DNA from: Nanobdellota archaeon
GTDB taxonomy: Archaea > Nanobdellota > Nanobdellia > Woesearchaeales > GCA-2686295
Direction: 5' to 3'
Assembly: GCA_018817005.1 (NCBI GenBank)
Contig: JAHIUF010000018.1
Span: 4,964-68,963 of the forward strand
DNA length: 64,000 nt
Shown here: one piece after another, positions 21,505 to 61,091 of the stretch
How positions within the stretch are numbered: position 1 is the stretch's first letter
Layout of the letters: each line of letters opens with the position of its first letter
Translations under genes and position numbers: made by a program
The notes under the pieces: generated by a model
Databases searched by the model: none
What the model saw: only the letters and a program-made list of their open reading frames with translations
What the model was told of the DNA's origin: nothing

Positions 21505-22262
21505 AGAAGTTTTATTGTTTCTTTCAATTTTGTTGGACCGTGGGAATAAACAGGAACTCCTTTGTTTATCACTTGTTTAATTATATCATCTAAAAACACT
21601 CTTTGTGAAGGAAGGGTCATTCCTGTTTCGTTTTCTTCTGGTTTGTAAAAATAATTTGATCCTTTGTATTCTTCACCAGAAGTTATCTCATTACTAAACT
21701 CTACACCGTATAAATGAATATTTTTTGCACCCATAATGAAAGCTACTTGTACAGCCATACATGCACTTGTTCCACCAACATTTATGCTAGTTTGATATTT
21801 TGATACAGGCTCATCACTTGTTACTTTTCTGATTAAATAATGATTTTTGGCAGGTTCAGGTATTTTAGAGAAATAATAATCTATAAATTCATTGCCAGGC
21901 AAAATACATCTTAAACCTTGACCTTTTTTGAAGTGCGTTATATTGGGATTTTTATCCATGTATGTTTCATAGACTCTAATCATATCTTCTCTTAGTTTTT
22001 TATTTGGATAAAATTTTTCAGAATAAATTGCTGTGTGGGGTCTCAGGATGCAATGTACATCAGAGTCTAAACCTTTAAACCAGGATCTGGTGTGTGTTGC
22101 TTCATCTCCTGAAATAAAGTAGTCATCTGACTGCAATAGTTTGCCAGCACCATTAACACCTATTGCTTTTGTTTCATTTCTTTTAAACAATAATGCTGAA
22201 GGTGCAGAACCAATAACTGCAAAGTCTTCTCCTTGATGTAAATCTCTGAATTTATCAAGCAT
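21501..22262 (-). CDS. DUF115/MptE-like protein (possible archaeal 6-hydroxymethylpterin diphosphokinase)
   Basis: AVIGSAPSA N-terminal glycine motif and VGGTSACMAVQVAFIMGAKNIHLYGVEF resemble MptE-like family signatures. Confidence 0.45.
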   Translation of the reverse strand: MLDKFRDLHQGEDFAVIGSAPSALLFKRNETKAIGVNGAGKLLQSDDYFISGDEATHTRSWFKGLDSDVHCILRPHTAIYSEKFYPNKKLREDMIRVYETYMDKNPNITHFKKGQGLRCILPGNEFIDYYFSKIPEPAKNHYLIRKVTSDEPVSKYQTSINVGGTSACMAVQVAFIMGAKNIHLYGVEFSNEITSGEEYKGSNYFYKPEENETGMTLPSQRVFLDDIIKQVINKGVPVYSHGPTKLKETIKLL

Positions 22263-26680: not shown

Positions 26681-27010
26681 ATGTTTTCAAGAAAAAAAGT
26701 TTATGGAGAATACAAAAAAGATATTTGTCCTTTTTGTGAAAAGCAAGCAACAAGCATTAATCAACAGGGTGTTCCTGTATGTCAACAGCACAAAACAGAA
26801 GAGCTTCCTCTTATGAAGTGTGTTTGTGGAGAAACTCTTGATTTAAAAACAGGCAAATTCGGTGCATATTTTCACTGCATGAACTGTGGAAACATTAGCT
26901 TTCACAAAGCAATGGATATAAATCCAAAAATAAACTTTGAAAGAAAAAAAGAAGCAACCCAAAAAAAAGAAATAACTGTCACTTCTGACGAAGCAGATTT
27001 CATATTTTAG
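26681..27010 (+). CDS. Zinc-ribbon protein with topoisomerase-type C4 zinc fingers
   Basis: CPFCEK...VCQQH and CVCGETLDLKTGKFGAYFHCMNCGN match the zf-C4_Topoisom pattern. Confidence 0.5.
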   Translation: MFSRKKVYGEYKKDICPFCEKQATSINQQGVPVCQQHKTEELPLMKCVCGETLDLKTGKFGAYFHCMNCGNISFHKAMDINPKINFERKKEATQKKEITVTSDEADFIF

Positions 27011-28959
27011 GATTTTGAAACATCAATTCTTTCTTTTAATTTTTTAACTCTATCTCGAAGTGCAATTGCTCTTTCGAATTCAAGTTTGTTTGCGGCTTTT
27101 TGCATTTCGAACTCTAATTCTATAATCAAATTCGGAACATCTTTTTTTGGAATGTGTTTTGCATCTGTTAGTTCAATTTCTTTTTCTTTAATAGGCTTTA
27201 TTATTGTTTTTGGTGTAATCTTATTTTTCTTATTATATTTCAACTGCAAATTTCTTCTTCTATTGGTTTCTAAAACTGCTTTTTTTATTGAATCAGTAAT
27301 TTTATCAGCGTATAAAACAACCTTTGAATTTATGTTTCTTGCAGCTCTGCCGATGATTTGTATAAGGCTTCTTGCGTCACGCAAAAATCCTTCTTTATCT
27401 GCGTCAAGTACTCCTATAAATCCTACTTCAGGAATGTCTAACCCTTCTCTTAAAAGATTAATCCCGACTAAGACGTCAAATTTTCCAAGCCTTAATTGTC
27501 TTATAATTTCTGTTCTTTCAAGTGTATCAATTTCAGAATGAAGATATCGAGTTTTTATTCCTGCTTCTGCAAAATATTCTGTTAATTCTTCAGCAAGTTT
27601 TTTTGTAAGTGTTGTTACAAGAACCCGGTCACCTCTGCTGATTGTTAATCGGATCTCTTCTTTTAAATCATTAATTTGTCCTTTAATTGGTTTTATCAAA
27701 ACCACTGGATCAACAAGACCTGTAGGTCTGATTATTTGTTCTACGATCTGTGATGAATGTGTTTCTTCATAAGGCCCTGGAGTTGCCGAAACAAACAACA
27801 CATTATTTTTTTTCATGAATTTTTCAAACTCTGAAAAGTCTAATGGTCGGTTATCAAATGCACTTGGAAGTCTGAAACCATAATCTATTAAATTTTTTTT
27901 TCTCGAATAATCACCCTTATACATTCCTCTTACTTGTGGTAATGTTTGGTGACTTTCATCAATAACAATCATAAAATCTTCTGGAAAATAATCAAGCAAA
28001 CAAAAAGGCCTCTCACCTTTTTTTCTTCCTTCAAAATACCTAGAATAATTTTCTATGCCTTTACAAAAACCTGTTTCTTCAATCATTTCCAAATCATAAA
28101 GAGTTCTTTGTTTTAATCGATGAGCCTCTAAAGGTTCTAATTCCAAAAGTCGCTCTTTAAGATCATCTTTTATTAAGTCTATTGAAGAACTTATTGTTTC
28201 CGGCGATATAACAAATTGTCTTGCGGGATAAACATGAAAATATTTCATATCTTCTAAAACATTACCAGATGTTTTTTCAATTTCAAGAATTTTTTCTACA
28301 ATATCACCAAATAATTCTATTCTTATGATGTTATCAAAATATCCTGGTATAAAATCAATTGTATCACCTTTAACCCTGAATCTTCCGGGCATAAGTTCTA
28401 AATCGTTTCTTTCAAACTGTAAATCAACAAGTTTTCTTATCAAGTCATTTCTTGAAAACTTTTTTTTAGAAACTATTTCAAATCCCATTTGTACAAAATT
28501 TTTTGGATCGCCAACACTGTAAATACAAGAAACTGAAGCTACAACTATCACATCTTTTCTTGATATAAGTGAGGCTGTTGCCGCAAGCCTCATCTGTTCG
28601 ATTTTTGGATTTACCTGGGCATCTTTTTCTATGTACTGATCTTTTTGTGGTATATATGATTCTGGCTGGTAATAATCATAGTATGAGACAAAATATTCAA
28701 CTCTATTTTTGGGAAAGAAATCTTTAAATTCGTTATAGAGTTGAGCAGCTAAAGTCTTGTTGTGTGCTAAAACAAGAGTTGGTTTTTGTATTTGAGATAT
28801 GATGTTTGCAACTGTAAATGTTTTTCCAGAACCCGTAACTCCCAGAAGCGTTTGGTAATTTAGTTTGTTCTTTAATCCTTTCATGAGTTTTTTTATTGCT
28901 TCTGGCTGTGAGCCTTTAGGCTTAAAGCTTGATTTGAGTTTAAATTCATTTAATGCCAT
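27007..28959 (-). CDS. uvrB: Excinuclease ABC subunit B
   Basis: 650 aa, LLGVTGSGKTFTVANII Walker A, helicase motifs, C-terminal UVR domain. Confidence 0.9.
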   Translation of the reverse strand: MALNEFKLKSSFKPKGSQPEAIKKLMKGLKNKLNYQTLLGVTGSGKTFTVANIISQIQKPTLVLAHNKTLAAQLYNEFKDFFPKNRVEYFVSYYDYYQPESYIPQKDQYIEKDAQVNPKIEQMRLAATASLISRKDVIVVASVSCIYSVGDPKNFVQMGFEIVSKKKFSRNDLIRKLVDLQFERNDLELMPGRFRVKGDTIDFIPGYFDNIIRIELFGDIVEKILEIEKTSGNVLEDMKYFHVYPARQFVISPETISSSIDLIKDDLKERLLELEPLEAHRLKQRTLYDLEMIEETGFCKGIENYSRYFEGRKKGERPFCLLDYFPEDFMIVIDESHQTLPQVRGMYKGDYSRKKNLIDYGFRLPSAFDNRPLDFSEFEKFMKKNNVLFVSATPGPYEETHSSQIVEQIIRPTGLVDPVVLIKPIKGQINDLKEEIRLTISRGDRVLVTTLTKKLAEELTEYFAEAGIKTRYLHSEIDTLERTEIIRQLRLGKFDVLVGINLLREGLDIPEVGFIGVLDADKEGFLRDARSLIQIIGRAARNINSKVVLYADKITDSIKKAVLETNRRRNLQLKYNKKNKITPKTIIKPIKEKEIELTDAKHIPKKDVPNLIIELEFEMQKAANKLEFERAIALRDRVKKLKERIDVSKS

Positions 28960-29042
28960 TTTCTTTTGATAAAATTATAACAAACTTATAACAAAAACTT
29001 TTATTTTAATTTAAAAAGGTTACTGCCTCGTGTCTAGTGTGA

Positions 29043-30608
29043 TTATTTCTGCAAAGTTTCTTTTCTTCTTAAAAGCCGGTTATAACTTATTGCAAACCTA
29101 TGAGCTTCGTCTCTAATTTCTCGCAAAAATAAAAGACCTTTATTTTTCTTTTCGAGCTTTATTGAAAATTTAAGACCTGGAACAAATATTTCTTCTTCTT
29201 TTTTAGCAATTGAAATAATTGGGATTTTCAAATTCAAATTTTTTAATTCTTCAAGAGCAAAACTCAGTTGTCCTTTTCCTCCGTCAACAACTATTAAGTT
29301 TGGAAGTGGTTTCTTCTCATCCAATAGTCTTTTATATCTTCTCATTACAACTTCTGATATTGCTTTAAAATCATCAATACCTTCAACAGTTCTTATTTTG
29401 TATCTGCGATAATTTTCTTTGTTAGGTTTGCCGTTTTGAAATTGAATCATTGATGCAACAGTTGAAGTTCCTGATATATGTGAAACATCAAAGCACTCTA
29501 TTACGAATGGTGTTTCTTGCAAGCGAAGTTTTGTTTTTAAAACACTTAATTTTTCTACTTCACCAAAAAATAATGCTTCAATATTTTTTAGAACTAGTTC
29601 AAGAAGCTTTTTTTTATCGCCCTTTTTTGGAACAACAACTAAAACTTTTTCTTTTCGTTGAAATTCTAGAAAAGATTTAAGCGAATTACTAATGTTCTTT
29701 GGTAAGATTATTTCTTTTGGAACCTTATTTTCAGAATAATATTGAGAAATAAATTGTTCAAAAAAATCGTTTTGTTCTTCAAATTCAAATTCCTGTTTAT
29801 TTTCAAGAAGACCTTTGTAAACATTAAAAAGCAAGAGATAAACTTTTCCTTGTGCTCGTTTATAATTTATTATATCTTGATTGTATTTTTTTTGCAGTTC
29901 CATGGTTTGTTTTTCTTTAAGCCAGATTAGTGATTGTATTTGATTTCTTAATTCGATTGCTAATTCAAAATCTTGTTTCTTAGAATAAAGTTCCATATTC
30001 TTTTGAAGTATTTTTAAAAGATCGTTTATTTTCCCTTTAAGAACCATTTTTGTAGCAGATATTTTTTTAGCGTATTCCTTTTTTGAAATATTTTTTATAC
30101 ATGGTGCTTCACAAAGTTTTATATGATATCGTAAACAGGATTTTTTAGAGATTTTTTTGCAGGTTCGAAGCTTAAAAGTTTTTATGAGTGTATGCATAAG
30201 ATAATCTCTTGTTCCTGCAGATGTGAATGGTCCGAAAAATTCTCCTGTACCAATTTTTTTTCTTACAATAAGAATTCTTGAAAAATCTTCTTTCGTAATG
30301 TGAATGTAAGCATATCTTTTTGAGTCTTTAAGTTGAATATTATATTTTGGCTGATACTTTTTTATCAGATTATTTTCCAGAATGAGTGCTTCCACTTCAT
30401 TATTTGTTATAAAAAATTCTATGAATTCAATCTTTGAAACAAGAGATTTTGTTTTTGAATCTAAAGACTTTTTTTGAAAATAACTACTAACTCTTTTTTT
30501 TAGATTATTTGCTTTACCAACATAGATTACTTTTTCTTTTTTGTTTTTGAAAAGATAACAACCGGGTTTGATAGGAATTTTGTTTGGGACATCTTTAAGT
30601 TTTATCAT
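29043..30608 (-). CDS. uvrC: Excinuclease ABC subunit C
   Basis: N-terminal GIY-YIG (PGCYLFKNKKEKVIYVGKANNLKKRVSSYF), 521 aa; overlaps the uvrA stop by 4 nt. Confidence 0.85.
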   Translation of the reverse strand: MIKLKDVPNKIPIKPGCYLFKNKKEKVIYVGKANNLKKRVSSYFQKKSLDSKTKSLVSKIEFIEFFITNNEVEALILENNLIKKYQPKYNIQLKDSKRYAYIHITKEDFSRILIVRKKIGTGEFFGPFTSAGTRDYLMHTLIKTFKLRTCKKISKKSCLRYHIKLCEAPCIKNISKKEYAKKISATKMVLKGKINDLLKILQKNMELYSKKQDFELAIELRNQIQSLIWLKEKQTMELQKKYNQDIINYKRAQGKVYLLLFNVYKGLLENKQEFEFEEQNDFFEQFISQYYSENKVPKEIILPKNISNSLKSFLEFQRKEKVLVVVPKKGDKKKLLELVLKNIEALFFGEVEKLSVLKTKLRLQETPFVIECFDVSHISGTSTVASMIQFQNGKPNKENYRRYKIRTVEGIDDFKAISEVVMRRYKRLLDEKKPLPNLIVVDGGKGQLSFALEELKNLNLKIPIISIAKKEEEIFVPGLKFSIKLEKKNKGLLFLREIRDEAHRFAISYNRLLRRKETLQK

Positions 30609-33406
30609 TTTAATATATTTCTTAAAAAAACTGCGGTGTGACTATTCTTGTTTATTGACACCTCTTCAGGTGTTCCTTTTGCAACAATAAAACCTCCATC
30701 ATCACCGCCATCTGGACCTAAATCTATTATGTAATCCGCAGATTTTATAACATCAAGATTATGTTCAATTACAATCATTGTGTTCCCCTTTGAAACTAGT
30801 TCATCTAAAACCAAGATTAGTTTTTTTACATCATGAAAATGAAGACCTGTTGTTGGTTCATCTAATAAATAAACTGTTTTTCCAGTTCCTTTTTTTGAAA
30901 GTTCTCTTGTAAGTTTAATTCTTTGTGCCTCTCCACCAGAAAGGGTTGTAGAGCTTTGACCAAGTTTGATATATCCTAGACCTACTTTTTTTAATGTTTC
31001 AAGTTTTGATTTTAATAGCGGTCTATTCTGAAAAAGTTCGTAAGCTTCATCTACAGTCATATTCAAAATATCTGCTATTGATTTACCTTTAAATCTCACT
31101 TCTAAAGTTTCACGATTGTATCTTTTGCCCCCACAATCTTCACATTCAACATATACATTTGGAAGAAAATTCATTTCTATCTTTATGACTCCATCACCTT
31201 GACAAATTTCGCATCTTCCACCTTTTACATTAAAAGAGAATCTTCCCGGTTTATAACCCCTTATTTTTGATTCTTTTAATTCTGAAAATAGTTTTCTTAT
31301 TTCATCAAAGATTTTTGTGTATGTTGCAGGGTTGCTTCTTGGAGTTTTACCTATGGGACTTTGATCTATTACTACTACTTTATCAATTTCTGATCCTAAT
31401 ATGATTTTATCATGTTCACCAACTCTTTTTTTTGAGTCATAAAGCTTTTTCATAAGGCCTTTATAGAGAATTTCATAAATCAAAGTTGATTTGCCGCTTC
31501 CTGAAACACCTGTTATGAGCGTTAAAATTCCTATTGGAATACTAACATCAATGTTTTTTAAGTTGTTCTGTCTACAACCTTTGATTTCAATAAAACTCTG
31601 AGCCTTTCTTCTAATGTTCGGAATGGAAATTTTCATTTTTTTGGAAAGATATTTTCCTGTCAGGGATTTTTCGTTTTTTGCAATTTCTTCAGGTGTGCCT
31701 TTGGCAATAATCCTTCCCCCTAAAAGACCTGCACCAGGACCCATATCTACAACGTAATCTGCTTTTCTTATTGTGTCTTCATCGTGTTCTACAACAATAA
31801 GAGTATTTCCAATATCTCGTAAGCGATGAAGTGTATCTATTAGTTTTTGATTATCTTTTTGATGAAGACCAATTGATGGTTCGTCAAGAATGTATATTAC
31901 ACCCATTAGATTGGAACCTATCTGTGTTGCAAGTCTAATTCTTTGGGCTTCTCCGCCAGAAAGCGTTCCTGAGTTTCTTGAGAGTGTTAAGTATGAAAGT
32001 CCTACTTCTGATAAAAATTTAAGTCGAGAATTTATTTCTTTTAAGATGTGTTTTGCAATCTCTTGTTCTTTTTCAGATAATTTTAAATCTTTAAAAAAAT
32101 CTAAAGTATCTTTTATGGAAAGGTCGGTTATATCAATTATTGATTTATCGTTTATTTTTACTGCTAAAACTTTTTCTTTAAGCCTTTTTCCCTTACAAGC
32201 AGGACAGGTAGATACTCTCATAAATTTTTCAAGTTCTCTTCTTCTATAATCTGATTCAGTTTGATGAAAAAGTCTTTCAGATTGAGGTACGAGACCTTCC
32301 CAACTACTGGTATGAGTCCAGTTAGCTTCACCTTGCTTCATCTTCATATTAAATTTTATTCGATCCTCAGATCCATACATCAAAATATTGTATTGTTCTT
32401 TTGATAAGTCTTTGATTGCTGTAAAAACTCCAAACCCATAATGTTTAGCAACTGAACCGATATATTGTCCTCGCCAACCATCAATTGCGTTTCTGTAAAG
32501 CATTATTGCACCATCTGCAATTGACTTATTCTTATCTGGTATTATCAAGTCAGGGTCAAAATCCATTTTTATACCAAGACCATGACATTCTTCACAAGCA
32601 CCAAACGGACTATTAAAAGAAAACATTCTTGGTTGCAATTCTTCAAATGCTAAGCCACATTTTGGACAAGCCATTTTTGAAGAGTATAATTGTTCTTTAT
32701 TTGATTCGTCAAGAACAATCAATAATCCTTTTGATTTTAACAGAGCATTTTCACAAGCCTCTACGAGTCTTTGAGTGTCTGTTATGTTAAGTCTATCTAT
32801 AACTATTTCAATATCATGTTTTTTGTATCTTTCAAGAAGTATTTTTTCATCAGTTCTTACAATTTGTTTATTTACTCTTGCTCTTGCATATCCTTCTTTG
32901 TTTAAATCCATTAACAGTTTTTCATATGTTCCTTTTTTTTGTCTGATTATTGGTGAAAGAACTATTATGTTACCGGAGAGTTCTTCTGCAATTTTCTGTG
33001 CAATTCTTTCTGAAGATTGAGCTTCTATTTTTATTCCGTGTTCCGGACAGTAAGGAATACCTATTCTTGCGAAAAGAAGCCTCAGATAATCATATATTTC
33101 AGTTATTGTTCCAACAGTACTTCGAGGATTCTTACTCGTAGTTTTTTGTTCGATTGATATTGCTGGCGATAAGCCTTCAATACTATCAACATCTGGTTTG
33201 TTCATTAACCCCAAAAATTGTCTTGCATAAGCTGAAAGTGATTCAACATATCTTCTTTGCCCTTCAGCATATAATGTGTCAAAAGCAAGGGTTGATTTTC
33301 CACTGCCTGAAAGACCAGTTATTACTATAAACTTATCCCTTGGAAGTGTTACATTAATGTTTTTTAGGTTGTGCTCACGAGCACCTTTAATTATTATGTC
33401 TTTCAT
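30605..33406 (-). CDS. uvrA: Excinuclease ABC subunit A
   Basis: 933 aa, two ABC modules ([20 protein letters not shown]), zinc fingers, LSGGEAQRI signatures. Confidence 0.9.
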
Positions 33407-44286: not shown

Positions 44287-46587
44287 ATGAAGGGGTTTAT
44301 CGTTTATCCAACTTATAGAATTGTTGATGAGAAGGCTTATGTTCATTTATTCGGAAGGCTTGAGAATGGAGAATCTTTTTTGACCATTAATCATTTTAGG
44401 CCATATTTTTTCATAAGAAAAAAAGACTTGAAAAAAGCCTTAAAAATTGAAACTTTCGAGTACGAAACAACAACTCTTAAAACATTTTCAGAAGACCCGG
44501 TTGTAAAAGTGATTTTGGATATTCCAAGAAAAGTTCCTGAGTTTAGAAAAATTTTTTATGAACAGGATGTTGAAAGTTTTGAAGCAGATATTCGTTTTTC
44601 CTATCGATTCATGATGGATAAGAATCTTAAAGGAAGTATTGAAATAAAAGGTGATTATAAAAAAGGAGAATTTGTTTCAAGGATTTATGAAGAACCTGAG
44701 ATTCTGCCGAGCAATTGGATTCCAAAGCTTAAGGTTTTATCTATTGATATTGAAACTGATAGTCATGCGAGAGAATTATTTTGTATATCAATGCATACAG
44801 ATGATTTTTCAAAAGTAATAATTCGTTCTGAAAAGGATATAAAGAATGCTATAAGCGTAAAGTCTGAAAAAGAATTGCTCGAAGTATTCAAAGAAAAACT
44901 ATTATTGCTTGACCCGGATATTATAACTGGTTGGAATGTCATTGATTTTGACCTTATTAAACTTCAGGAAAAATTCTTGCAGTATGGAATGGATTTCAAA
45001 CTTGGAAGGATTAATTGGAATTGTAAAATTCGAAAACAAGAATCTTTTTTCAAGGATTCAACCGCTGATTTTCCGGGAAGAGTAATTCTTGATGGTATAA
45101 CACTCTTAAAAATTTCATTTGTGAAATTGCCCGACTTCAAACTTGACACTGCAGCAACAATTATCTTGGGTGAAAAAAAGCTTATAGGTGTTGAAAATAA
45201 AGGAAAAGAAATTGAAGACGCATTCAAGAAAAATCCACAAAAACTAGTTGAATATAATTTAAATGATTCTGTTCTTGTTACAAAAATCTTGGAAAAAACA
45301 GGTGTTTTAAATTTAACAATAAAAAGATCGCTTCTTACAGGCATACAACTTGATAAGGTAAAAGGCAGTATTTCAGCTTTTGACTCATTATATCTTCGTG
45401 ATCTTCAAAAAAAAGGATACGTTGCGCCTTCAGCAAAATTTGGTGAACGTGAAGAACGAATAAAAGGCGGATATGTTATGAGCTCAAAACCGGGAATATA
45501 TGATTATGTCATTGTTTGCGACTTCAAAAGTCTATATCCAAGCATCATAAAAACGTTTAACATTGATCCATTCACATATGTTGAAGATTGCAAAGGAAAA
45601 AACCTGATTAAAGCCCCAAATGGTGCTTGCTTTAGAAAAGAAAAAGGCCTTCTTTTTGAAATGATTGAAAGACTTTGGAAAGCAAGAGATGAATTAAAAA
45701 AGAAGGATGATCAAACAGGAAGTTATGCTATAAAAGTTTTGATGAATTCAATGTTTGGGGTTATGGCAAACCCTGTTTTTAGATTTTACAACAATAAAAT
45801 CGCGAATGCAATAACTCATTTTGGTCAGCATTTCATAAAATTCGCTACGAAAAAAGTAGAAGAATTAGGTTATGAAGTGATATACGGCGATACAGATTCA
45901 ATATTTGTTAATCTTGATGTTAAAAATTATGAAGAAGCAAAAAAAGTAGGAATTGACATTCAAAATAAAATAAACAATTTTTTTAATAATCATATAATAA
46001 AAGAATATGGTTGTGAAAATTTTTTAGAATTAGAATTTGAAAAGGTTTACAAGCGTTTTCTCATGCCGAAAGCCAGAGGCTCTGAGCAAGGTTCAAAAAA
46101 AAGATATGCAGGTCTTCTTATAAAAGATAATAAAGAGCAAATGGATTTTGTAGGTTTAGAATTTGTAAGACGAGATTGGACAAAGCTTGCAAAAACATTC
46201 CAACTTGAGCTTTTGAAAAAAATATTTCGTAAAGAAGAGGTTGCAAAGTACATACAAACATTTGTAAAAGACTTAAAAAAAGGAAAACATGATGATTTAC
46301 TCATTTATAGGAAAGCCATTAGAAAAAATCTTGATGAATATACAAAAACAACTCCTCCTCATGTCAAGGCTGCAAGAATGCTTCCAAAACTCACAAGCAG
46401 CATCATTGATTATATTATGACTATTAACGGGCCTGAACCCATTCAACTATTAAAAAGCAATATTGATTATGAACATTACATTGAAAAACAGATAAAGCCG
46501 TTGGCAGATACTGTTCTTTCGTTTTATGACACTAACTTTGATGACATAATTAACAATAGTTCTCAAAAAACCTTGTTTGGATATTAG
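44287..46587 (+). CDS. polB: DNA polymerase, family B
   Basis: Exo I LSIDIETD, Pol motif A DFKSLYPSII, motif C YGDTDS; 766 aa, no intein. Confidence 0.9.
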   Translation: MKGFIVYPTYRIVDEKAYVHLFGRLENGESFLTINHFRPYFFIRKKDLKKALKIETFEYETTTLKTFSEDPVVKVILDIPRKVPEFRKIFYEQDVESFEADIRFSYRFMMDKNLKGSIEIKGDYKKGEFVSRIYEEPEILPSNWIPKLKVLSIDIETDSHARELFCISMHTDDFSKVIIRSEKDIKNAISVKSEKELLEVFKEKLLLLDPDIITGWNVIDFDLIKLQEKFLQYGMDFKLGRINWNCKIRKQESFFKDSTADFPGRVILDGITLLKISFVKLPDFKLDTAATIILGEKKLIGVENKGKEIEDAFKKNPQKLVEYNLNDSVLVTKILEKTGVLNLTIKRSLLTGIQLDKVKGSISAFDSLYLRDLQKKGYVAPSAKFGEREERIKGGYVMSSKPGIYDYVIVCDFKSLYPSIIKTFNIDPFTYVEDCKGKNLIKAPNGACFRKEKGLLFEMIERLWKARDELKKKDDQTGSYAIKVLMNSMFGVMANPVFRFYNNKIANAITHFGQHFIKFATKKVEELGYEVIYGDTDSIFVNLDVKNYEEAKKVGIDIQNKINNFFNNHIIKEYGCENFLELEFEKVYKRFLMPKARGSEQGSKKRYAGLLIKDNKEQMDFVGLEFVRRDWTKLAKTFQLELLKKIFRKEEVAKYIQTFVKDLKKGKHDDLLIYRKAIRKNLDEYTKTTPPHVKAARMLPKLTSSIIDYIMTINGPEPIQLLKSNIDYEHYIEKQIKPLADTVLSFYDTNFDDIINNSSQKTLFGY

Positions 46588-46630
46588 ATTCTACAAATTA
46601 TTTAAATATGAACAAGTATTTTATAATTAT

Positions 46631-49012
46631 ATGAAGAAAAAAATTAACAAAAAAAAGTTAATTATTTTAGGAATCATCATACTGTTTATATTGCTAATTG
46701 TTTTTGGAACTAAGCTCTTTTTGTACTTGAATTTTCTTTTAGGAAATGATGCGTTAATTAAACTCACAACCGACAAGGAATACTTGTCTGTTAAGAGGAA
46801 TCAATCTTTCGAGTTAAATTTCAAAGCAAGCATTATGTCTAATCCCTTCTGCAAGGTGGATTGCAATTCCACATTTGAAGATTTAAGTGATAATCGAATG
46901 CTGGACGAAAATAGTTTTACATTAAAAACTAATAACCCATTTGAAAAACAATACGAATTACAAATAACAAAATTTGGAGAAGGACAAAAACTGCTGCGAT
47001 TTAATCTTGAATGTAGCAGTGGAAAAACAACTCTTTGCCACACGGATGAAAAAAAAATCAAAAGCAGTATTTTAGTGAATGTTGAATATTTATTAAGTGA
47101 AGAAGAAGAACTTCTGAAAGAAACACTATATGAAAAACTTGAACTGATAAAGGAATCTCTTTCAGAACAACAAATAAAAATCCTAACTTTGAATGAACTC
47201 AATCAGACAGAAAAAAAAATATTGGGTTTGAACTCTGAAAGAATAAGTCTGTTAACAAATAAATTGTCTGCAGATATCAAATTATTGATTAAAAGGAAAA
47301 TTCTTTGGGATGGAAAAAATTATTATCTGTTGAAAACAAAAATCGGTGAGATGTCTGTTGATAATAATTCTGACTTGATTAATGAAACCTATAAGCTTCT
47401 AAAGAAAAGAGTTCAAGAATATAACGAATTTCTAAACGAACTAAATACAACTCGTATAGATCTTGGCAAACTAAAAAACAGATTCATAATAGAAGAAACT
47501 CAAGCAGAACAAGTTGTTTTATTAATTGATTTTTTTAATAGTCAAATTTCTTTGTTTAACGAAAAAGATTTTGAAGAAAAAGCGAATATTGTTATGAATT
47601 TAAAAAACAGCACTAAAAAAATAGTTGCTAACATAACACGAGAAGAAAGAACTGAAGCAATTATAAAATCAATTGATATGGATATTCATTATTCGCTACT
47701 TTGTAATCTAACTGGCAAATGTTATGACAGACCATCAATTCAAAGTCGGGCGTATCAGGATGATTTTAATCTAGAATCTGTGTGTCTGGAAATAATCAGT
47801 ATAAATAAATTATATGATGACATTGGAAAAACAATAAATCCTGCGATTAACAAAACAGGATTTAATGAAACAATAAATAAAAAAATATTTGAGTCATTGA
47901 TATCAAAAAGCGCAAGATCATTCTTGGATGAACTTCCCGCAAACAATTTAAACAGCGAAATCATAAAAAAGTTTTTAGAACAAAAAAACACTGTTACAGA
48001 ATTGTTGGAACCAGAAAACAAAAATTGGACTACCAATGAACTCATAAAAAACAACCCTTCTGTCTGTGAAGAAAAAAAAATAGACGCAATATTAAGAATA
48101 GTACAACTAAAAAAAATAGTGATTGAAGACAAAGCAAAAGATTTGAATTTATCTTTCAAAGAGCCAAAAGCACAATGTTGTATTTTTGAGATTTGTAACG
48201 ATTGTTGTGCAACAAAAGAATGCACTGTCAAATCAACACCAATAATTTTCTTGCACGGTCATGCTTTCAATAAAGCTGTTGAAGCTGATTATAGCCTAGA
48301 ATCATTCAACCAATTACAAAATGCCTTAGAAGCACAGTCATATATTAATGCAGGCTCATTATCATTATACAATATAAACACCATTCCTGAAGGCTTATGG
48401 GGTGTTATGGGAAAACCAATAAGCATCAAAGCGAGCTATTATTTCGATGTTTATCAGAATGCAGAAGATTATTACTGGGTTCAAACAAAAAGTGAAAACA
48501 TAGATACTTACACAATAAAATTAAATGACATAATTAACATTGTAATTGAAAAAACAGGTTCTGAAAAAGCAGTTGTGATTGCCCATAGTATGGGTGGTCT
48601 TGTCGCAAGAAGATACTTGCAAATATTTGGAAGTGAAAAAGTAGAAAAACTAATACTGTTAGGGACACCAAATCATGGTATTAGCGGGTATGTTGCTGAT
48701 TATTGCTCAATTACTGGTGAAAAACTTGAATGCAGGGATATGAAAGAAGAAAGCCTTTTCATGAATAAACTTAATAGGGAACCATTGCCTCCAATTAAAA
48801 TATACAATATTATTGGTTTTGGTTGCGATATGCAAGGTGAAGATGGTGATGGTATAGTCCTAAAAAAAAGTGCTTTTCTTCAAGGTGCAGAAAATCATTT
48901 AATAAAAGGAGAATGCAAAGGTTTGGATTTATTTCATAAAGAATTAACTAATGTTCAAAAGCACCCTGATATTTACACAATAATACTCAACACATTGTAT
49001 GAAGAAACATAG
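46631..49012 (+). CDS. Membrane-anchored protein with C-terminal alpha/beta-hydrolase (lipase/PGAP1-like) domain
   Basis: N-terminal TM, long coiled/Asn-rich middle, Cys cluster CCIFEICNDCCATKEC, GxSxG VVIAHSMGGLVARRYL; start set at first ATG (MKKKINKKK); the ORF track uses a TTG at 46577 overlapping polB. Confidence 0.5.
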   Translation: MKKKINKKKLIILGIIILFILLIVFGTKLFLYLNFLLGNDALIKLTTDKEYLSVKRNQSFELNFKASIMSNPFCKVDCNSTFEDLSDNRMLDENSFTLKTNNPFEKQYELQITKFGEGQKLLRFNLECSSGKTTLCHTDEKKIKSSILVNVEYLLSEEEELLKETLYEKLELIKESLSEQQIKILTLNELNQTEKKILGLNSERISLLTNKLSADIKLLIKRKILWDGKNYYLLKTKIGEMSVDNNSDLINETYKLLKKRVQEYNEFLNELNTTRIDLGKLKNRFIIEETQAEQVVLLIDFFNSQISLFNEKDFEEKANIVMNLKNSTKKIVANITREERTEAIIKSIDMDIHYSLLCNLTGKCYDRPSIQSRAYQDDFNLESVCLEIISINKLYDDIGKTINPAINKTGFNETINKKIFESLISKSARSFLDELPANNLNSEIIKKFLEQKNTVTELLEPENKNWTTNELIKNNPSVCEEKKIDAILRIVQLKKIVIEDKAKDLNLSFKEPKAQCCIFEICNDCCATKECTVKSTPIIFLHGHAFNKAVEADYSLESFNQLQNALEAQSYINAGSLSLYNINTIPEGLWGVMGKPISIKASYYFDVYQNAEDYYWVQTKSENIDTYTIKLNDIINIVIEKTGSEKAVVIAHSMGGLVARRYLQIFGSEKVEKLILLGTPNHGISGYVADYCSITGEKLECRDMKEESLFMNKLNREPLPPIKIYNIIGFGCDMQGEDGDGIVLKKSAFLQGAENHLIKGECKGLDLFHKELTNVQKHPDIYTIILNTLYEET

Positions 49013-49044: not shown

Positions 49045-49317
49045 TCAGGTTAACTGTACATACCCTACTTCTGGTTCGATTATAAGACTATCATGTTTTA
49101 GCGCGTCAATCGTGGATAAAACTTCACTTTCTGCAAGACCTTCAAGCCCTGCTTCAAGAATTACTGCTTCAACTTGAATCTTTGCACCTTTTCTCATTGA
49201 AAGATTGTTAAGAATATCTAAAATTTTTATTTTATTATCTACTTCTGATTCTCGAAGTATGCTGGATGCAGTCATCCTCTGTATTTCCATTAATCTATCA
49301 AAATCTATGTCATCCAT
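49045..49317 (-). CDS. Small winged-helix-like protein resembling the MCM C-terminal WH domain
   Basis: 90 aa; C-terminal ...LIIEPEVGYVQLT resembles the MCM WH ending (..YEPRPGYYRL); encoded divergently from the MCM AAA+ core. Confidence 0.3.
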   Translation of the reverse strand: MDDIDFDRLMEIQRMTASSILRESEVDNKIKILDILNNLSMRKGAKIQVEAVILEAGLEGLAESEVLSTIDALKHDSLIIEPEVGYVQLT

Positions 49318-49478
49318 TTCTGTGTTAGAAAAGCAAGTACTTTTCTATATCCCCCGCTATTAGTATAGGATTGTGTGTATAAAAAGCTTTCGCAAACAGT
49401 ATGGAAAAAAGTATATTAATCCTTGAATCTCGAAACATTTATATTGTAGTGTGTTTTAATGATTAAGAGGGGATAAAG

Positions 49479-50648
49479 ATGGGCTTTTTTAGATTATTAC
49501 TTCCACTATCAAAAAGAAATAAAAGAGACTTATCAGAGTTAGCTAGATATCTTGAAAAAGACGACTTAAAAAAAGTCAAGAGAATGCTTAAACAAAAGAA
49601 GATTGGCTTTGCATACCGATCACTCAACATTTCCCAAAAACTAATCTCTGACACGAGTTTTCCTTTCTTAAATGCAGCGATTGAAGATTCAGAGATTTCA
49701 AAAACCACAGACAACATCAATAGTGTTGTTGAGCAACAAGTACGAGCAAAAAAATATAAAGAATTCTCAGAAGTTGCTTATGAAAAAATAAAGGGTTTTA
49801 TCGCGCCAAACATCGTTGGAATGGATTTTGCAAAAGAAGCAGCCATGCTACAATTATTTGCAGTTGAAAAAGTACACCTTCTACTGTTAGGAGATCCTGG
49901 CACTGGAAAAACTGAGATATTAAGATCTGTTAATGAATTAGCACCAATATCTTCTTTTGGACTCGGATCAGGAATTAGCGGTGTGGGATTAACAGTTTCT
50001 GTGCAAGGAAAAGAGATTCATAAAGGTTTGCTTCCAATAGCAGACGATGGTGTTTGTTGTATTGATGAATTAAATCTTATGAAACAAAAAGATAGGGGCG
50101 CACTTCTTAATGCCATGGAAAAAGGTTTCATAACCTATAACAAAGGAAACAAAAGTCTAAGCCTTGATGCAAGAGTAAGTGTTCTTGCAACTGCAAACCC
50201 CACAGGGGATCGTTTTGTCGGAAAAATAATTGATACCTTCAAAAAACAAATACCTTTTGATTCAGCGCTTTTAACAAGATTTCACATCATTTTCTTCATA
50301 AGAAGACCTAATGAAAAAGAATTCGCAAATATAACTCAAAAAATTGTGAGTGGTAAAGAAATGAGAGTAGAGATAAACGACTCGTTGTTTATCAGAGATT
50401 ATATAGAATTTTCACATTTAATAACTGTGAAGTTTGATGAAAAACTAAAAACAACAATAGTTGATTTCGTTGCCAGACTTAAAAAAGATGAAGATAAATT
50501 CTTGGTTGAAATAAACCCAAGAACAATAATTGGAATAATGAGATTTGCAAAAGCAGCTGCAAGACTTGAGCTTCGAAACAAAGTTGAAGAAAAAGACTTG
50601 AAAAAAGTTTTTGATATTTTAGAGAAAAGCTTATATATTAAAAGATAA
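49479..50648 (+). CDS. MCM-family AAA+ ATPase lacking the N-terminal OB/zinc domain (mini-MCM)
   Basis: IAPNIVGMDFAKEAAMLQLF, Walker A GDPGTGKTE, Walker B CCIDELNLM, VLATANP, arginine-finger region TRFHIIFF; GAGGGG SD upstream; 389 aa versus about 650-700 for full MCM. Confidence 0.7.
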   Translation: MGFFRLLLPLSKRNKRDLSELARYLEKDDLKKVKRMLKQKKIGFAYRSLNISQKLISDTSFPFLNAAIEDSEISKTTDNINSVVEQQVRAKKYKEFSEVAYEKIKGFIAPNIVGMDFAKEAAMLQLFAVEKVHLLLLGDPGTGKTEILRSVNELAPISSFGLGSGISGVGLTVSVQGKEIHKGLLPIADDGVCCIDELNLMKQKDRGALLNAMEKGFITYNKGNKSLSLDARVSVLATANPTGDRFVGKIIDTFKKQIPFDSALLTRFHIIFFIRRPNEKEFANITQKIVSGKEMRVEINDSLFIRDYIEFSHLITVKFDEKLKTTIVDFVARLKKDEDKFLVEINPRTIIGIMRFAKAAARLELRNKVEEKDLKKVFDILEKSLYIKR

Positions 50649-53545: not shown

Positions 53546-53983
53546 TTATTTTTCTCTTCTTAAAAAATCTCCTCTGTCAAGAATTGGTTTTAAGATTATT
53601 TGTCTTCCTTGTCTTTGTATACTTCCGTATCCTAAGTTCTCATCTTTCTCGTTTTGAACTAAAACCATTCCTTGAGAAATGTTTGATTTGACAATATTTC
53701 CTTCGAGTATTGTTCTTTTGCATAGAAAAAGCCATTCTCCTTTTTTATTTATGTATGCTTTCTTTTCTGATTTTTTTGAAAGCAAGTCAATTAGTGCTAG
53801 ACTAGGTTTAAAATAATCTTTTTCTTCTCCTAAAAATAATCCTACTGAAAATATTTCTTTATTGGTGTCTTTTATTTTGTTTAGGATTTCTTCTTCTACT
53901 TGAAAATATTCTCGTTTTATTTTTACAACGTTGTCTATTGGTTTATCTGTAAACTGTTTTGTGAACTCGTCTAATTTATTCAT
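53546..53983 (-). CDS. PUA-domain protein, possible Nip7/UPF0113 homolog
   Basis: C-terminal VLVQNEKDENLGYGSI...DRGDFLRRE resembles the Nip7 PUA signature (DxGxYLR). Confidence 0.35.
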   Translation of the reverse strand: MNKLDEFTKQFTDKPIDNVVKIKREYFQVEEEILNKIKDTNKEIFSVGLFLGEEKDYFKPSLALIDLLSKKSEKKAYINKKGEWLFLCKRTILEGNIVKSNISQGMVLVQNEKDENLGYGSIQRQGRQIILKPILDRGDFLRREK

Positions 53984-55200
53984 GTTTTTAGAATGACATC
54001 AATTTTTTTGAGGGAATCTTTTATTTTTTGTTTTATGAATTTTGGATTGCTTCTTTCCATCTTATTTTCTATATCTTCTATTTCTCGTTCTTTTAGTTTT
54101 CTTTGTTCAATTATTGATTCTAAATGAGTTTTTTCTTCCATGAGATTAAGATTTGAAATATTTGCTTTTATTTGTTGTTCATAGTTTTTTTGTTGTTCTT
54201 CAAGTTCTGCTAATTCTTTATTTTTTCTTTCTAAGAATTCTTTGTTTATGGTGGTTATTTCTTCTTTTGTTTTTCCTATTTTTTTATCTTTTATTCCGAG
54301 GCTTTCAAGTTTTTCTTTAAGTTTTTCTAATATCGCTAATATTTTAAGGTTTTTATCTTCTTTTAGGGCTGCAGATGGATTTTGCAGGTATTCATCTATT
54401 AATTTTTCGTCAAGAGACGTTCGCTTGTATTTTTTTAATGGTCGTTCTATGAGTGCGAATTTTTGTAATAATTCTTTTTTGGTTTCTTTTATTTTTTCCT
54501 TTGATGCTTGGATTTTTCTACCAAGTCCTAAATATTCTTTGTATCTGGTGCTTTTTTCTATTTCTGCTATTTTATTTTGTAATTTCTTTTCTTTTTGAAT
54601 TATCTCTTGTAATTCTGTTTGTTTGTTTTCTTTTTCTTTTTCTAATATTTCTTTAACATTTTTTGCTTGAGTATAATCGTTTTTTAATTTTAGTATATCA
54701 TCTATTAGTTCTAAATTTTCTTGTTCAACTAATCGTCTTAGCTTTATTGATTCGCTTTCTATTTCTTTAATTTTTTTTGCAACAGTTGCAGCTTCTGTTT
54801 CTAGAAATTCTTTTAGCACAAAAAAGCTTTTTTGTGTTTCTTCACTTAATTTATCTATTTTTTTTGATAGTTCTATTGAAAAAGTTCTTATTTCAGTTCT
54901 TTTTTTGGGAAATTCTAGGTCGTCGAGAAAAAAATTTATTTTTTGGATATAGTTCTTTCTGTTACCACTTAAAATATGTTTTACTCTTTCAGGTATTTTT
55001 TCATTTAGAAGTGTTGCGCTTTCCAATTCATTTATCGCATCTCTTGCTTCTTTTATTTTATTCTCTGAAAACTGTTTGAAGCCTTCAATTCTTTTTGATA
55101 CATCTTTTTTTTCCAAAAATGAATCTATCCATGTTTCTAATTCTTTGAAAGTTATCTCTTGAGGTTCACTTTTCTTTTTAAAAAAATTAAATAGGCCCAT
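53980..55200 (-). CDS. Lys/Glu-rich coiled-coil protein (hypothetical)
   Basis: 406 aa, heptad-like K/E repeats; overlaps the downstream ORF by 4 nt. Confidence 0.45.
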   Translation of the reverse strand: MGLFNFFKKKSEPQEITFKELETWIDSFLEKKDVSKRIEGFKQFSENKIKEARDAINELESATLLNEKIPERVKHILSGNRKNYIQKINFFLDDLEFPKKRTEIRTFSIELSKKIDKLSEETQKSFFVLKEFLETEAATVAKKIKEIESESIKLRRLVEQENLELIDDILKLKNDYTQAKNVKEILEKEKENKQTELQEIIQKEKKLQNKIAEIEKSTRYKEYLGLGRKIQASKEKIKETKKELLQKFALIERPLKKYKRTSLDEKLIDEYLQNPSAALKEDKNLKILAILEKLKEKLESLGIKDKKIGKTKEEITTINKEFLERKNKELAELEEQQKNYEQQIKANISNLNLMEEKTHLESIIEQRKLKEREIEDIENKMERSNPKFIKQKIKDSLKKIDVILKT

Positions 55201-55802: not shown

Positions 55803-56417
55803 ATGTCTTACAGCGATCAAATCATAAACACAGAAAAACGAGAAAAATACATGATTACAAGAATCGTGTGGCCTAATGTGAATACTCTCGAAACAAGAAT
55901 AGTTCTCAAAGAAAAATATCACCCTGGAAAATTGGCAAAAGAAATAGTTTCAAGAAATAAAATATACACTCTCTTACTTGACGGGGACGATGACCCTTAT
56001 AGTAATACATACTTAGCGCATTTAGAGGTCAAACAACCAACAATAGAAGAATTGGTTGAATTTCAACAAACAAAAGACCCTACAAAACTCTATGAAGGAA
56101 ACATACTTATTAGTAATCATAAAAACGAAACGACAATTAAATTCTGGTTATTTGAAACAGGAACAAATTTTACTGCGAAATCAATTGGTCAGTTTCGAAA
56201 ATTTTTCTCCCCATTATTAGACACATTAAAGAATTATGGGGTAAATGAACCAAACATGTATATGCAGTTTTCTGAAGAAGCAGGTATTATAACAGAACAA
56301 AAAAACGCCGGCACTTTATGCACCCCTGAAGAAGAAATTAAACTATTTACTGATTTTGAATTATACGAATTAGCTCAAGAAGCAAAGAATGAAAGTGACG
56401 AAAGGAGAAAAAATTAA
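55803..56417 (+). CDS. hypothetical protein
   Basis: 204-aa ORF with GGAGG SD, preceded by a coupled 27-codon uORF. Confidence 0.4.
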   Translation: MSYSDQIINTEKREKYMITRIVWPNVNTLETRIVLKEKYHPGKLAKEIVSRNKIYTLLLDGDDDPYSNTYLAHLEVKQPTIEELVEFQQTKDPTKLYEGNILISNHKNETTIKFWLFETGTNFTAKSIGQFRKFFSPLLDTLKNYGVNEPNMYMQFSEEAGIITEQKNAGTLCTPEEEIKLFTDFELYELAQEAKNESDERRKN

Positions 56418-60122: not shown

Positions 60123-61091
60123 TCACGATTCTAATAGGTTTTCTTCCCATATCTGATTCTTTCCTGCAAGTTTTGCCTTGTAAAGAGCATCATCAGCTGC
60201 TTTCACAATCTGATTTATAGATATATTAAAATCACCCTTAGAAGGCGGATTATATGTTGCAACACCACCACTTACAGTAACTGATTTAATAAAATCTTTT
60301 TTAGGGCTGTAAGGTGCAGAACTAATTCTTTCTCGCAATCTATCAGCAAGGTTGTAAGCTGCATCAAAAGTTGTTTCAGGCAGTAAAAGAACCATTTCTT
60401 CTCCGCCAAATCTTACAGCAAGATCTGTTAAACGAGTGCTTTCCATCAAATTTCTCGCAATCTTTTTCAGAACGTAATCCCCTTCCAAATGACCAAAAGT
60501 GTCATTGTATTTTTTAAAATTATCAACATCAAAAAAAACTAAAGATAAAGGTTTTCTTGACCTAACCAACCTCTTTATTTCTAAAAGACTATGCGACTGA
60601 AATGCACCCATATTATAAAGACCGGTTTTAGGGTCTCTTTCAGAAAGAACTGCATTTTCCTGATTTCTTAACTCCTTTTGAACCTTTAACATCAACATAG
60701 AAAGATTAAGAGGCTTTGAAAGGTAATCACAAGCGCCAATTTTCATTGCTTCAACAGCAGTTTCGAGGTTTGGATTACCAGTCATAACAATTGACATGGT
60801 ATCTTTGCTTTCCTCTTTTATTTTTTTAAGCAATTCTAAACCACTCATGCCTGAAAGATTAATATCAATTAATGCAAGGTCATGATAAACAGACTTTATG
60901 TGTTCTAATCCCTCTTCTCCAGAATAAGCCTCTGAAACACTAAAATAAGGTATTTGACAAAGAGCATACTTGATTAAAGAAGTTATTTTTTTATCATCGT
61001 CAACAATTAAGATATTTTTATCTTTAGGAGTTCCTGATGCAGGGTTTTGTGAGTCAAGCAAATTAGTTAACTCATCGGTTGTGTTGAACAT
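60123..61091 (-). CDS. Response regulator with receiver domain fused to GGDEF diguanylate cyclase domain
   Basis: REC (ILIVDDD...DLALIDINLSGMSGLEL), GGDEF domain (FFDVDNFKKYND, RFGGEEMVLLLPET). Confidence 0.75.
   Translation of the reverse strand: MFNTTDELTNLLDSQNPASGTPKDKNILIVDDDKKITSLIKYALCQIPYFSVSEAYSGEEGLEHIKSVYHDLALIDINLSGMSGLELLKKIKEESKDTMSIVMTGNPNLETAVEAMKIGACDYLSKPLNLSMLMLKVQKELRNQENAVLSERDPKTGLYNMGAFQSHSLLEIKRLVRSRKPLSLVFFDVDNFKKYNDTFGHLEGDYVLKKIARNLMESTRLTDLAVRFGGEEMVLLLPETTFDAAYNLADRLRERISSAPYSPKKDFIKSVTVSGGVATYNPPSKGDFNISINQIVKAADDALYKAKLAGKNQIWEENLLES

Follow-up and report, generated by a model that had tools for sequence, protein, structure and literature searches.

An AAA+-only MCM motor and its stand-alone winged-helix gene at a probable ancestral MCM locus in Woesearchaeal genomes

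The question raised by the locus studied here is whether an MCM protein reduced to its AAA+ motor is the chromosomal MCM of an archaeal lineage, an accessory copy, one piece of a split helicase, or the property of a mobile element. The locus lies in a stretch of 64,000 nucleotides (the window) of contig JAHIUF010000018.1, from a Nanobdellota archaeon of the order Woesearchaeales, with a G+C content of about 30% throughout. The window matches a contig of a metagenome-assembled genome of Nanoarchaeota/Woesearchaeota type (GCA_018824025.1) and an ENA contig of 77.6 kb. An earlier note, made from the sequence alone, had placed there a 389-aa open reading frame (ORF), hereafter the mini-MCM, and a divergent 90-aa ORF at 49045-49317, and both are present at those positions. 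We hold with moderate confidence that the mini-MCM is a reduced ortholog of the chromosomal MCM, an AAA+-only motor whose winged helix (WH) acts in trans in the window's clade. The mini-MCM architecture is lineage-wide, and is neither a one-off, nor a pseudogene, nor a mobile element. The main features of the locus are listed below.

44287..46587, plus strand: family-B DNA polymerase (PolB), identified with Pfam; syntenic partner
49045..49317, minus strand: stand-alone MCM WH gene, 90 aa; long helix at residues 3-39 (approximately the lid-WH linker), then the winged helix (helices 49-58 and 63-75, beta-hairpin 79-89)
49318..49478, no strand: spacer between the divergent start codons, 161 bp, AT-rich; presumed shared promoter region, its promoter function being presumptive
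49479..50648, plus strand: mini-MCM gene, 389 aa; lineage-specific N-terminal module, linker helix, MCM AAA+ alpha/beta domain and lid

The motor and its missing N-terminal tier

A profile search of both ORFs, which the earlier note had proposed, matched the motor with the P-loop and lid models only and the small ORF with the C-terminal end of an MCM model. The 389-aa protein matches the MCM P-loop model PF00493 at residues 99-291 (E = 2.2e-42, 145.1 bits against a gathering cut-off of 23.3) and the MCM_lid model PF17855 at residues 304-385 (E = 3e-10, 40.9 bits against a cut-off of 27.4). NF040949, the NCBIfam model of the full-length MCM, covers the mini-MCM only at model positions 234-592 of 682, with 155 bits against a cut-off of 940, which indicates that the protein lacks both the N-terminal domain and the WH. 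Residues 261-588 of the Sulfolobus MCM (3f9v) align with mini-MCM residues 78-382, and the mini-MCM yields no Pfam or NCBIfam match to MCM_N (PF14551), to the zinc-binding subdomain or to MCM_OB (PF17207).

The stop-to-stop frame of the 389-aa ORF opens four codons ahead of the ATG, and a GAGGGG Shine-Dalgarno-like element lies 6-11 nt 5' of it, which together argue that the protein truly begins at the annotated ATG. Given this short frame and the 161-bp spacer, bounded by the divergent gene, there is no space for a hidden N-terminal exon or a frameshifted extension. The Pfam and NCBIfam matches, the alignment with the Sulfolobus MCM and the lack of upstream coding room all uphold the earlier note's description of an MCM AAA+ core without the N-terminal oligomerisation/OB/Zn domain. 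Its estimate that the ORF begins about 100 aa before Walker A needs correction, as Walker A spans residues 138-145 and is thus preceded by about 137 aa, the figure of about 100 aa being the start of the P-loop domain. Its remark that the ORF ends right after the lid is accurate, the C-terminus lying four residues beyond it. No member of the mini-MCM family has a fused WH, and the longer members have only low-complexity, lysine-rich tails.

The invariance of the motifs was assessed in an alignment of 42 homologues, with 48-68% identity, and in a motif table set against ten canonical MCMs. The parts of the motor are given below, with secondary structure from AlphaFold 2 (AF2) and invariance referring to the 42 sequences.

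49479..49688, plus strand: N-terminal module, residues 1-70; helices 12-21 and 27-38, strands 42-47 and 61-66 (AF2)
49689..49766, plus strand: linker helix, residues 71-96; long helix (AF2) equivalent to the N-C linker/pre-AAA+ region of the canonical MCM, with residue 78 equivalent to Sso 261
49890..49913, plus strand: Walker A GDPGTGKT, residues 138-145; G138, D139, T142, G143, K144 and T145 invariant
49992..50024, plus strand: shortened helix-2-insert hairpin, residues ~172-182; strands 173-176 and 179-182 (AF2), with gaps relative to MCM7 and the Sso MCM
50052..50075, plus strand: Walker B VCCIDELN, residues 192-199; D196, E197, L198 and N199 invariant
50127..50168, plus strand: pre-sensor-1 beta-hairpin, residues 217-230; strands 217-222 and 225-230 (AF2), K222 invariant
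50184..50201, plus strand: sensor 1 LATANP (N240); A237, N240 and P241 invariant
50268..50285, plus strand: arginine finger LLTRFH (R267); R267 and F268 invariant; SRFD in canonical MCMs
50388..50633, plus strand: MCM lid, residues 304-385 (PF17855); sensor-2 R348 (INPR), P347 and R348 invariant

The claim that every MCM AAA+ signature is present therefore stands, the catalytic set (K144/T145, D196/E197, K222, N240, R267 and R348) being invariant across the 42 homologues. Among the roughly 70 mini-type representatives in the motif table, about half retain the catalytic residues. The predicted fold is that of an MCM-type motor, including the helix-2 insert and pre-sensor-1 hairpins, the insert being about 5-12 residues shorter than in the ten canonical MCMs compared.

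Residues 1-70 are specific to the family and are confidently predicted as a two-helix, two-strand alpha/beta module, with an invariant P9 within an 'LLPL' motif. The module is conserved in the 42 aligned members, and in the roughly 70 distant representatives the alignment starts at residue ~3-18. A derivation of residues 1-100 from subdomain A or from the OB fold was rejected, given that hhalign detects no signal of homology between this segment and the canonical MCM N-terminal domain (probability 0.2%). An internal deletion of the Zn and OB parts with subdomain A kept is pure speculation.

The winged-helix gene and the search for an N-terminal piece

The 90-aa protein, whose C-terminal end reads ...IIEPEVGYVQLT, matches the last 67 positions of NF040949 (614-680 of 682) with an E-value of 3.4e-5, and the same site of this model is matched by all 22 aligned WH homologues (best E 3.2e-7). 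When the profile of the WH family was compared with PDB sequences, the top two matches were MCM WHs, namely residues 614-680 of 8x7t_D and the Sulfolobus MCM WH solved by nuclear magnetic resonance (2m45). In the reverse search, the hidden Markov model (HMM) of the WH family recovers more than 25 independent full-length MCMs and aligns in each with exactly the final ~60 residues. Motor and 90-aa protein jointly tile the MCM model, at 234-592 and 614-680, with a gap of about 20 residues. These sequence profiles and the tiling identify the 90-aa ORF as an MCM WH. PF21120 and PF21100, taken alone, score below threshold on it, with 13.5 and 13.2 bits against 26-27.

The earlier note had seen in this ORF a likeness to the MCM C-terminal winged helix and had suggested a structure prediction. 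The AlphaFold model (predicted local distance difference test, pLDDT, of 84.8) starts with a long helix and continues as a winged helix of classic form, which agrees with that likeness, as do the profiles in both directions. It is very improbable that the ORF is another replication-related winged helix (RPA32-like) or a small transcription factor that adjoins the motor by chance: the C-terminal end of the MCM model is its sole significant sequence-family match, RPA_C does not match it at E up to 0.1, its adjacency to the motor is conserved, and the PDB matches, the reverse search and the tiling all point to MCM.

Stand-alone WH homologues number 28, with 75-129 aa, and are found on the same contigs as the motor. 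In 14 loci, which correspond to the window's clade plus L027, the WH gene is directly upstream of the mini-MCM and divergent to it. The gene order PolB - WH(-) - mini-MCM(+) is conserved in the window's clade, with the same order in L003, and all three genes are present in L003, L006, L008-L014, L056 and L027. Across the clade, identity to the window is 61-68% for the mini-MCM, 60-76% for the WH, 66-77% for PolB and 65-72% for GAPDH. These comparable values indicate that both the motor and the WH gene are under strong constraint. A scan of the locus for bacterial-type promoters and terminators gave no promoter-like site above shuffled expectation and three uninformative terminator-like matches, the bacterial model being uninformative here.

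Given that the 90-aa ORF is an MCM-type WH, by profiles in both directions and by predicted fold, the C-terminal end of the MCM gene is truly fissioned, and this WH fission is well supported. The earlier note's term of a fissioned helicase holds for this end; as for the other, neither the contig nor the surroundings of the gene in 85 genomes, up to 10 kb away, yielded a separate N-terminal piece. The search relied on an N-terminal HMM built from 46 diverse full-length MCMs, which recovered the viral MCM of L086, used as a positive control, with an E-value of 2.5e-47. Over the window and about 1.5 Mb around 85 family members, this model matched only the zinc motifs of UvrA and adenylate kinase. 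Neither Pfam scans nor precomputed Pfam matches yielded MCM_N or MCM_OB among the window ORFs of at least 110 aa, and the other 13.6 kb of the 77.6-kb contig gave no MCM N-terminal domain either. An N-terminal piece is thus absent from all sequence covered, i.e., the window, the contig and about 1.5 Mb around 85 members, and we infer that neither an N-terminal domain nor a canonical MCM is present elsewhere in the genome.

Several candidates for this piece were considered and rejected. The ORF at 21501-22262, which weakly matched a Methanothermobacter MCM probe, encodes an MptE-like protein, and the weak N-terminal matches in related loci are adenylate kinases with zinc-ribbon lids. A pair formed by a 181-aa protein and a DUF3368 protein resembles a toxin-antitoxin pair. 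Both the downstream protein of 155-196 aa and a 339-aa protein in L091 are membrane proteins, the 87-aa ORF after a catalytically dead ortholog (described below) is a charged helix, and a ~520-aa neighbour, with an N-terminal winged helix-turn-helix (wHTH), does not fit.

The MCM locus across the lineage and the competing explanations

A word-indexed protein search with the 389-aa query returned more than 700 homologues, the best 120 of which all have 290-469 aa, mostly 380-440, and none of which carries extra domains. In a scan of GTDB with one genome per species, relatives were found in 199 species. The titles of the best 80 GTDB loci are mostly Woesearchaeota/Nanoarchaeota, with one Pacearchaeota and many 'uncultured Methanosarcinales', the latter probably mislabelled; the closed 1.84-Mb chromosome OY970338.1 is among these loci. 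When 1.84 billion cluster representatives were searched with HMMER, roughly 70 of the best 150 had the ~340-445 aa architecture, aligned from residue ~3-18 to ~385, and canonical MCMs of 600-700 aa entered the ranking only at about 150 bits and below. The neighbours of the mini-MCM are housekeeping genes (PolB, CutA, GAPDH, PGK, Rpr2, RIO kinase and Lon), and UvrABC and a ribosomal-protein/RNA-polymerase operon are on the same contig.

Regarding the record titles, 'uncultured Methanosarcinales archaeon (binchicken)' is carried by L009, L018, L021, L024, L027-L029 and others, and the pair P0004/P0138 is labelled 'Bacteroidota bacterium'. Records with a Woesearchaeota-type gene pair under other taxon titles are probably mislabelled bins or contaminant contigs.

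Canonical loci were obtained by scanning JGI metagenome contigs with an AT-rich DNA pattern, the canonical Walker-B...AMEQQ signature, which yielded 120 loci with full-length MCMs. One related canonical group has MCMs of 670-726 aa as called, on contigs of 30-36% G+C that, where they are named, bear '[archaeon]' labels or come from the TARA 0.1-0.22 µm fraction. An ortholog of ValRS, 45-52% identical to Woesearchaeal ValRS, adjoins the canonical MCM in L146, L175 and L179, a Cys-rich membrane protein does so in L109, L132, L153, L175 and L179, and an operon of a GTPase and a small protein, 60% identical, in L127. In different Woesearchaeal clades, the mini-MCM is flanked by ValRS upstream (5 loci), by the membrane protein directly downstream (8 loci) and by the GTPase operon downstream (about 22 loci). 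No locus among those compared has both a canonical MCM and a mini-MCM. Given three neighbour families common to both, the mini-MCM appears to stand in the ancestral MCM slot as a reduced descendant of the canonical MCM; on this comparison of gene neighbourhoods, it probably occupies the ancestral MCM locus as an ortholog and not as an accessory copy.

The Cys-rich membrane protein family has 155-200 aa and no Pfam match (L003 11164-11631, L048 11694-12281, also L006, L010-L012, L014 and L056). It directly adjoins the MCM in both mini-MCM and canonical-MCM genomes, its start overlaps the MCM stop codon in L003, and it is lost in the window's lineage.

In the course of events that we propose, the 389-aa protein would descend from a full-length MCM of canonical type, encoded at this same locus. 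The N-terminal tier of this ancestor (helical A, zinc B and OB-fold C) would have been lost, with the lineage-specific module of about 70 residues in its place, and its C-terminal winged helix would have been separated from the motor. The remaining AAA+ motor is complete, with Walker A/B, sensor 1, a trans arginine finger, sensor 2, the lysine of the pre-sensor-1 hairpin and a short helix-2 insert, and ring assembly and DNA translocation by ATP hydrolysis at the subunit interfaces are most likely kept. In the window's clade, the WH and the lid-WH linker helix would be supplied by the 90-aa gene, divergent across the shared 161-bp spacer and near PolB, and the WH presumably acts in trans as a regulatory/recruitment module, as the fused WH does in other archaea. 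Ring formation, helicase activity and a physical association of WH and motor are inferred. The isolated AAA+ domain of the Sulfolobus MCM reportedly keeps helicase activity in vitro (Barry et al. 2007; Pucci et al. 2007), and an AAA+-only mechanism is plausible given that engineered truncated SsoMCM constructs are said to hydrolyse ATP and unwind DNA in vitro.

Several points weigh against this account. Studied MCMs depend on their N-terminal domain for stable hexamers, loading and processivity, and we know of no precedent for a cellular replicative MCM without it. The synteny argument has limits, as only three neighbour families are shared, their orientations differ and the canonical contigs are of uncertain taxonomy; moreover, so many mini-MCM neighbours were compared that chance should produce some overlap. 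In the other clades, an iterated HMM for more divergent copies detected no WH gene up to 10 kb from the mini-MCM, hence the two-gene arrangement is not a property of the whole family. Beyond the sequence covered, a canonical MCM or a gene for a stand-alone N-terminal domain may exist elsewhere in these genomes.

The same account has to reckon with about 33 short representatives that have eroded Walker A, Walker B, arginine-finger or sensor-2 residues and keep the full-length fold. They form a subset of P0186-P0293, with loci that include L088 8055-9206, L090 8556-9710 and L091 10001-11131, and they look like catalytically dead orthologs or paralogs. P0218, from a Woesearchaeota metagenome-assembled genome (MAG; GCA_047602885.1), is colinear end to end with the window protein and 28% identical to the active member at the same locus. 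Its motifs compare with those of the window protein as follows.

Walker A: GDPGTGKT in the window protein, ADPHVLSS in P0218
Arginine finger: TRFH in the window protein, MAFH in P0218
Sensor 2: NPR in the window protein, DNQ in P0218

The locus of P0218 is that of the active member in the closed genome: between the two, the 181-aa protein, the DUF3368 protein, ThyA and the AsnC-like regulator are 32-43% identical, and the ~520-aa protein 28%. The ortholog has thus become non-catalytic in some Woesearchaeal lineages, and with a dead ortholog those organisms must have another motor, be it a second copy, a canonical MCM or something else. The existence of dead orthologs is the main reason why our confidence in the mini-MCM as the sole replicative helicase is moderate. 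Among the degenerate members, P0205 (515 aa, metagenomic) carries an N-terminal extension of about 130 residues with KEKxAEFA-type repeats.

The dead derivatives at an orthologous locus in some Woesearchaeota, with the roughly 33 degenerate representatives, indicate that the family can lose its ATPase function and yet persist, and this speaks for a different explanation, in which a canonical MCM encoded elsewhere replicates the chromosome and the N-less protein with its WH is an accessory or regulatory paralog for repair, regulation or use as a non-catalytic subunit. Such paralogs have precedents in Methanopyrus kandleri, whose second MCM is inactive, and in Thermococcus, where extra MCMs are non-essential. 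A missing N-terminal domain is normally disabling, and some low-GC, ultra-small '[archaeon]' MAGs encode canonical MCMs amid similar neighbours. We nevertheless consider this explanation unlikely. It is the mini-MCM that adjoins the ValRS, the membrane protein and the GTPase operon, which in relatives are the neighbours of canonical MCMs; about 1.5 Mb around 85 members and the 77.6-kb contig yielded neither a canonical MCM nor an N-terminal domain; the active members match GAPDH or PGK in conservation, with all catalytic residues kept; and a WH gene of its own, under PolB-like constraint, is hard to explain for an accessory copy. The inactive M. kandleri paralog, MCM2 (3f8t), keeps most of its N-terminal domain and coexists with a canonical MCM, whereas the window protein has none of the degenerate motifs of such a paralog, lacks the N-terminal domain entirely and apparently sits at the ancestral MCM locus.

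Still less probable in our view is a split into three pieces, with the A/Zn/OB domain on an unlinked gene and non-covalent reassembly with the motor, possibly by docking on the 70-residue module. As the C-terminal WH is demonstrably its own gene, fission at MCM domain boundaries did occur in the lineage; the start of the motor lies near the canonical N-C linker, and split informational genes are known from Nanoarchaeota and other DPANN archaea, including reverse gyrase, alanyl-tRNA synthetase and Dph1/2 (PMC6349945). The MCM of the window resembles these genes in that a core informational protein has one of its domains, the WH, on a separate gene, with the cut at a domain boundary, and differs from them in that its N-terminal piece is seemingly missing rather than relocated. 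The N-terminal HMM, sensitive enough to recover a distant viral MCM, finds no such domain in the window, the contig or the 85 related loci, the Pfam scans of the window ORFs are likewise negative, and no conserved neighbour qualifies as a candidate. Furthermore, an adjacent N-terminal piece occurs in no clade, though the split-off WH stayed adjacent in one.

Horizontal acquisition of the mini-MCM from a virus, plasmid or integrated element, as in the plasmid/virus-type mini-MCM which the earlier note had offered, is effectively refuted. Truncated or divergent MCMs are indeed common in archaeal viruses and plasmids (PMC3914693), and the far end of the contig carries a gene for an IS/rve transposase. 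However, the housekeeping synteny is conserved across many genomes, the G+C content is uniform, and no integrase, att sites or viral genes are found near the locus. IMG/VR holds only two relatives, distant at 29% identity, of which L086 was inspected and proved to be a complete MCM of 705 aa whose N-terminal domain is canonical. A tblastn search of GenBank phages and PLSDB plasmids returned only MCMs of about 25-30% identity, from haloarchaeal, methanogen and Thermococcus elements, which are no closer than cellular MCMs. The MCMs of mobile elements such as Haloferax tailed virus 1, TPV1 and pTN-type plasmids are often divergent or truncated (Krupovic et al. 2010) and are similarly distant in sequence, with 26-30% identity. 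The mini-MCM, in turn, has no mobile context, and its family is absent from the viral and plasmid collections. The transposase gene (L095 20232-20939, at the end of the 77.6-kb contig and outside the window) is of insertion sequence (IS) type, with rve and helix-turn-helix (HTH) domains, and adjoins the ribosomal-protein operon.

Neighbouring genes, known systems and meaning for the lineage

Other genes of the window and of related loci deserve mention. The gene at 46577-49012 (plus strand) specifies 811 aa, with a membrane anchor at the N-terminus, a PGAP1/lipase-type alpha/beta hydrolase at the C-terminus and, between them, a long region that is coiled and rich in cysteine (CCIFEICNDCCATKEC); in the window's lineage it separates PolB from the WH gene, and L003 lacks it there. 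UvrB, UvrC and UvrA are encoded at 27007-33406 (minus strand) as a complete cluster of bacterial type, in this genome-reduced DPANN archaeon. At 60123-61091 (minus strand), one gene joins a response-regulator receiver and a GGDEF diguanylate-cyclase domain, a fusion uncommon in archaea. Two genes without a Pfam match lie between PGK/UPF0113 and RIO kinase: one at 53980-55200 (minus strand), for a 406-aa coiled-coil protein with 35-47% identity in the clade, and one at 55803-56417 (plus strand), for a 204-aa protein that recurs on related contigs. Near the mini-MCM, alongside the AsnC-like regulator and thymidylate synthase, a protein of about 510-550 aa with an N-terminal wHTH and no Pfam match also recurs (L004 11866-13467, L043 3452-5101, L088 10641-12176 and L090 11138-12658).

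In comparison with the canonical archaeal MCM (Saccharolobus solfataricus 3f9v/6mii; Methanothermobacter), the mini-MCM presents the same AAA+ alpha/beta domain and lid, the Walker A/B motifs, the pre-sensor-1 lysine, sensor 1, an SRF-type finger and sensor 2, and the C-terminal WH of the canonical protein is homologous to the 90-aa protein. The differences are the absence of the N-terminal tier (A, Zn and OB), with an unrelated module of about 70 aa instead, the shortened helix-2 insert, a deletion of about 10 residues ahead of Walker A, and a WH that is on a separate divergent gene or is not found nearby. The signatures differ as well: IDE[FIL]DKM becomes IDELNLM, AMEQQ becomes AMEKG, and SRFD becomes [ST]RFH. 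The engineered SsoMCM constructs are AAA+-only like the mini-MCM, yet they are laboratory deletions with reduced processivity, whereas the mini-MCM is natural, ancient and conserved in hundreds of species.

No description of an MCM that is split or lacks its N-terminal domain was found for Woesearchaeota or DPANN in open-access papers and bioRxiv, and one comparative study just counts 'Mcm' among the proteins that every DPANN phylum has kept (PMC8407392). The NCBI names of the mini-MCM proteins are 'ATP-binding protein' or 'hypothetical protein', and marker-gene and annotation pipelines that count an MCM as present by its AAA+ domain hide this architecture.

In every archaeon and eukaryote studied, the MCM N-terminal domain is taken to hold the ring together, to bind and melt origin DNA, to set polarity and processivity, and to dock GINS/Cdc45. 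It is possible, and we put it forward tentatively, that an entire species-rich archaeal order replicates its chromosome with a natural AAA+-only MCM, the WH acting in trans or being dispensed with. If so, loading, double-hexamer formation, strand exclusion and GINS/Cdc45-type contacts, all ascribed to the N-terminal tier in studied MCMs, would be achieved otherwise or would be unneeded, and a dead motor in some sublineages would imply a further replicative helicase. If a canonical MCM coexists instead, the family would still be a large, conserved and unstudied group of MCM paralogs, with its own trans WH and inactive derivatives. If the only MCM of a widespread lineage does lack the N-terminal domain, these archaea would offer a natural experiment on the minimal requirements of a replicative helicase. 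This would show how far genome reduction in DPANN symbionts strips a core machine, and the small, soluble-looking 389-aa motor with its detachable 90-aa WH would provide a means of probing what the WH does when untethered.

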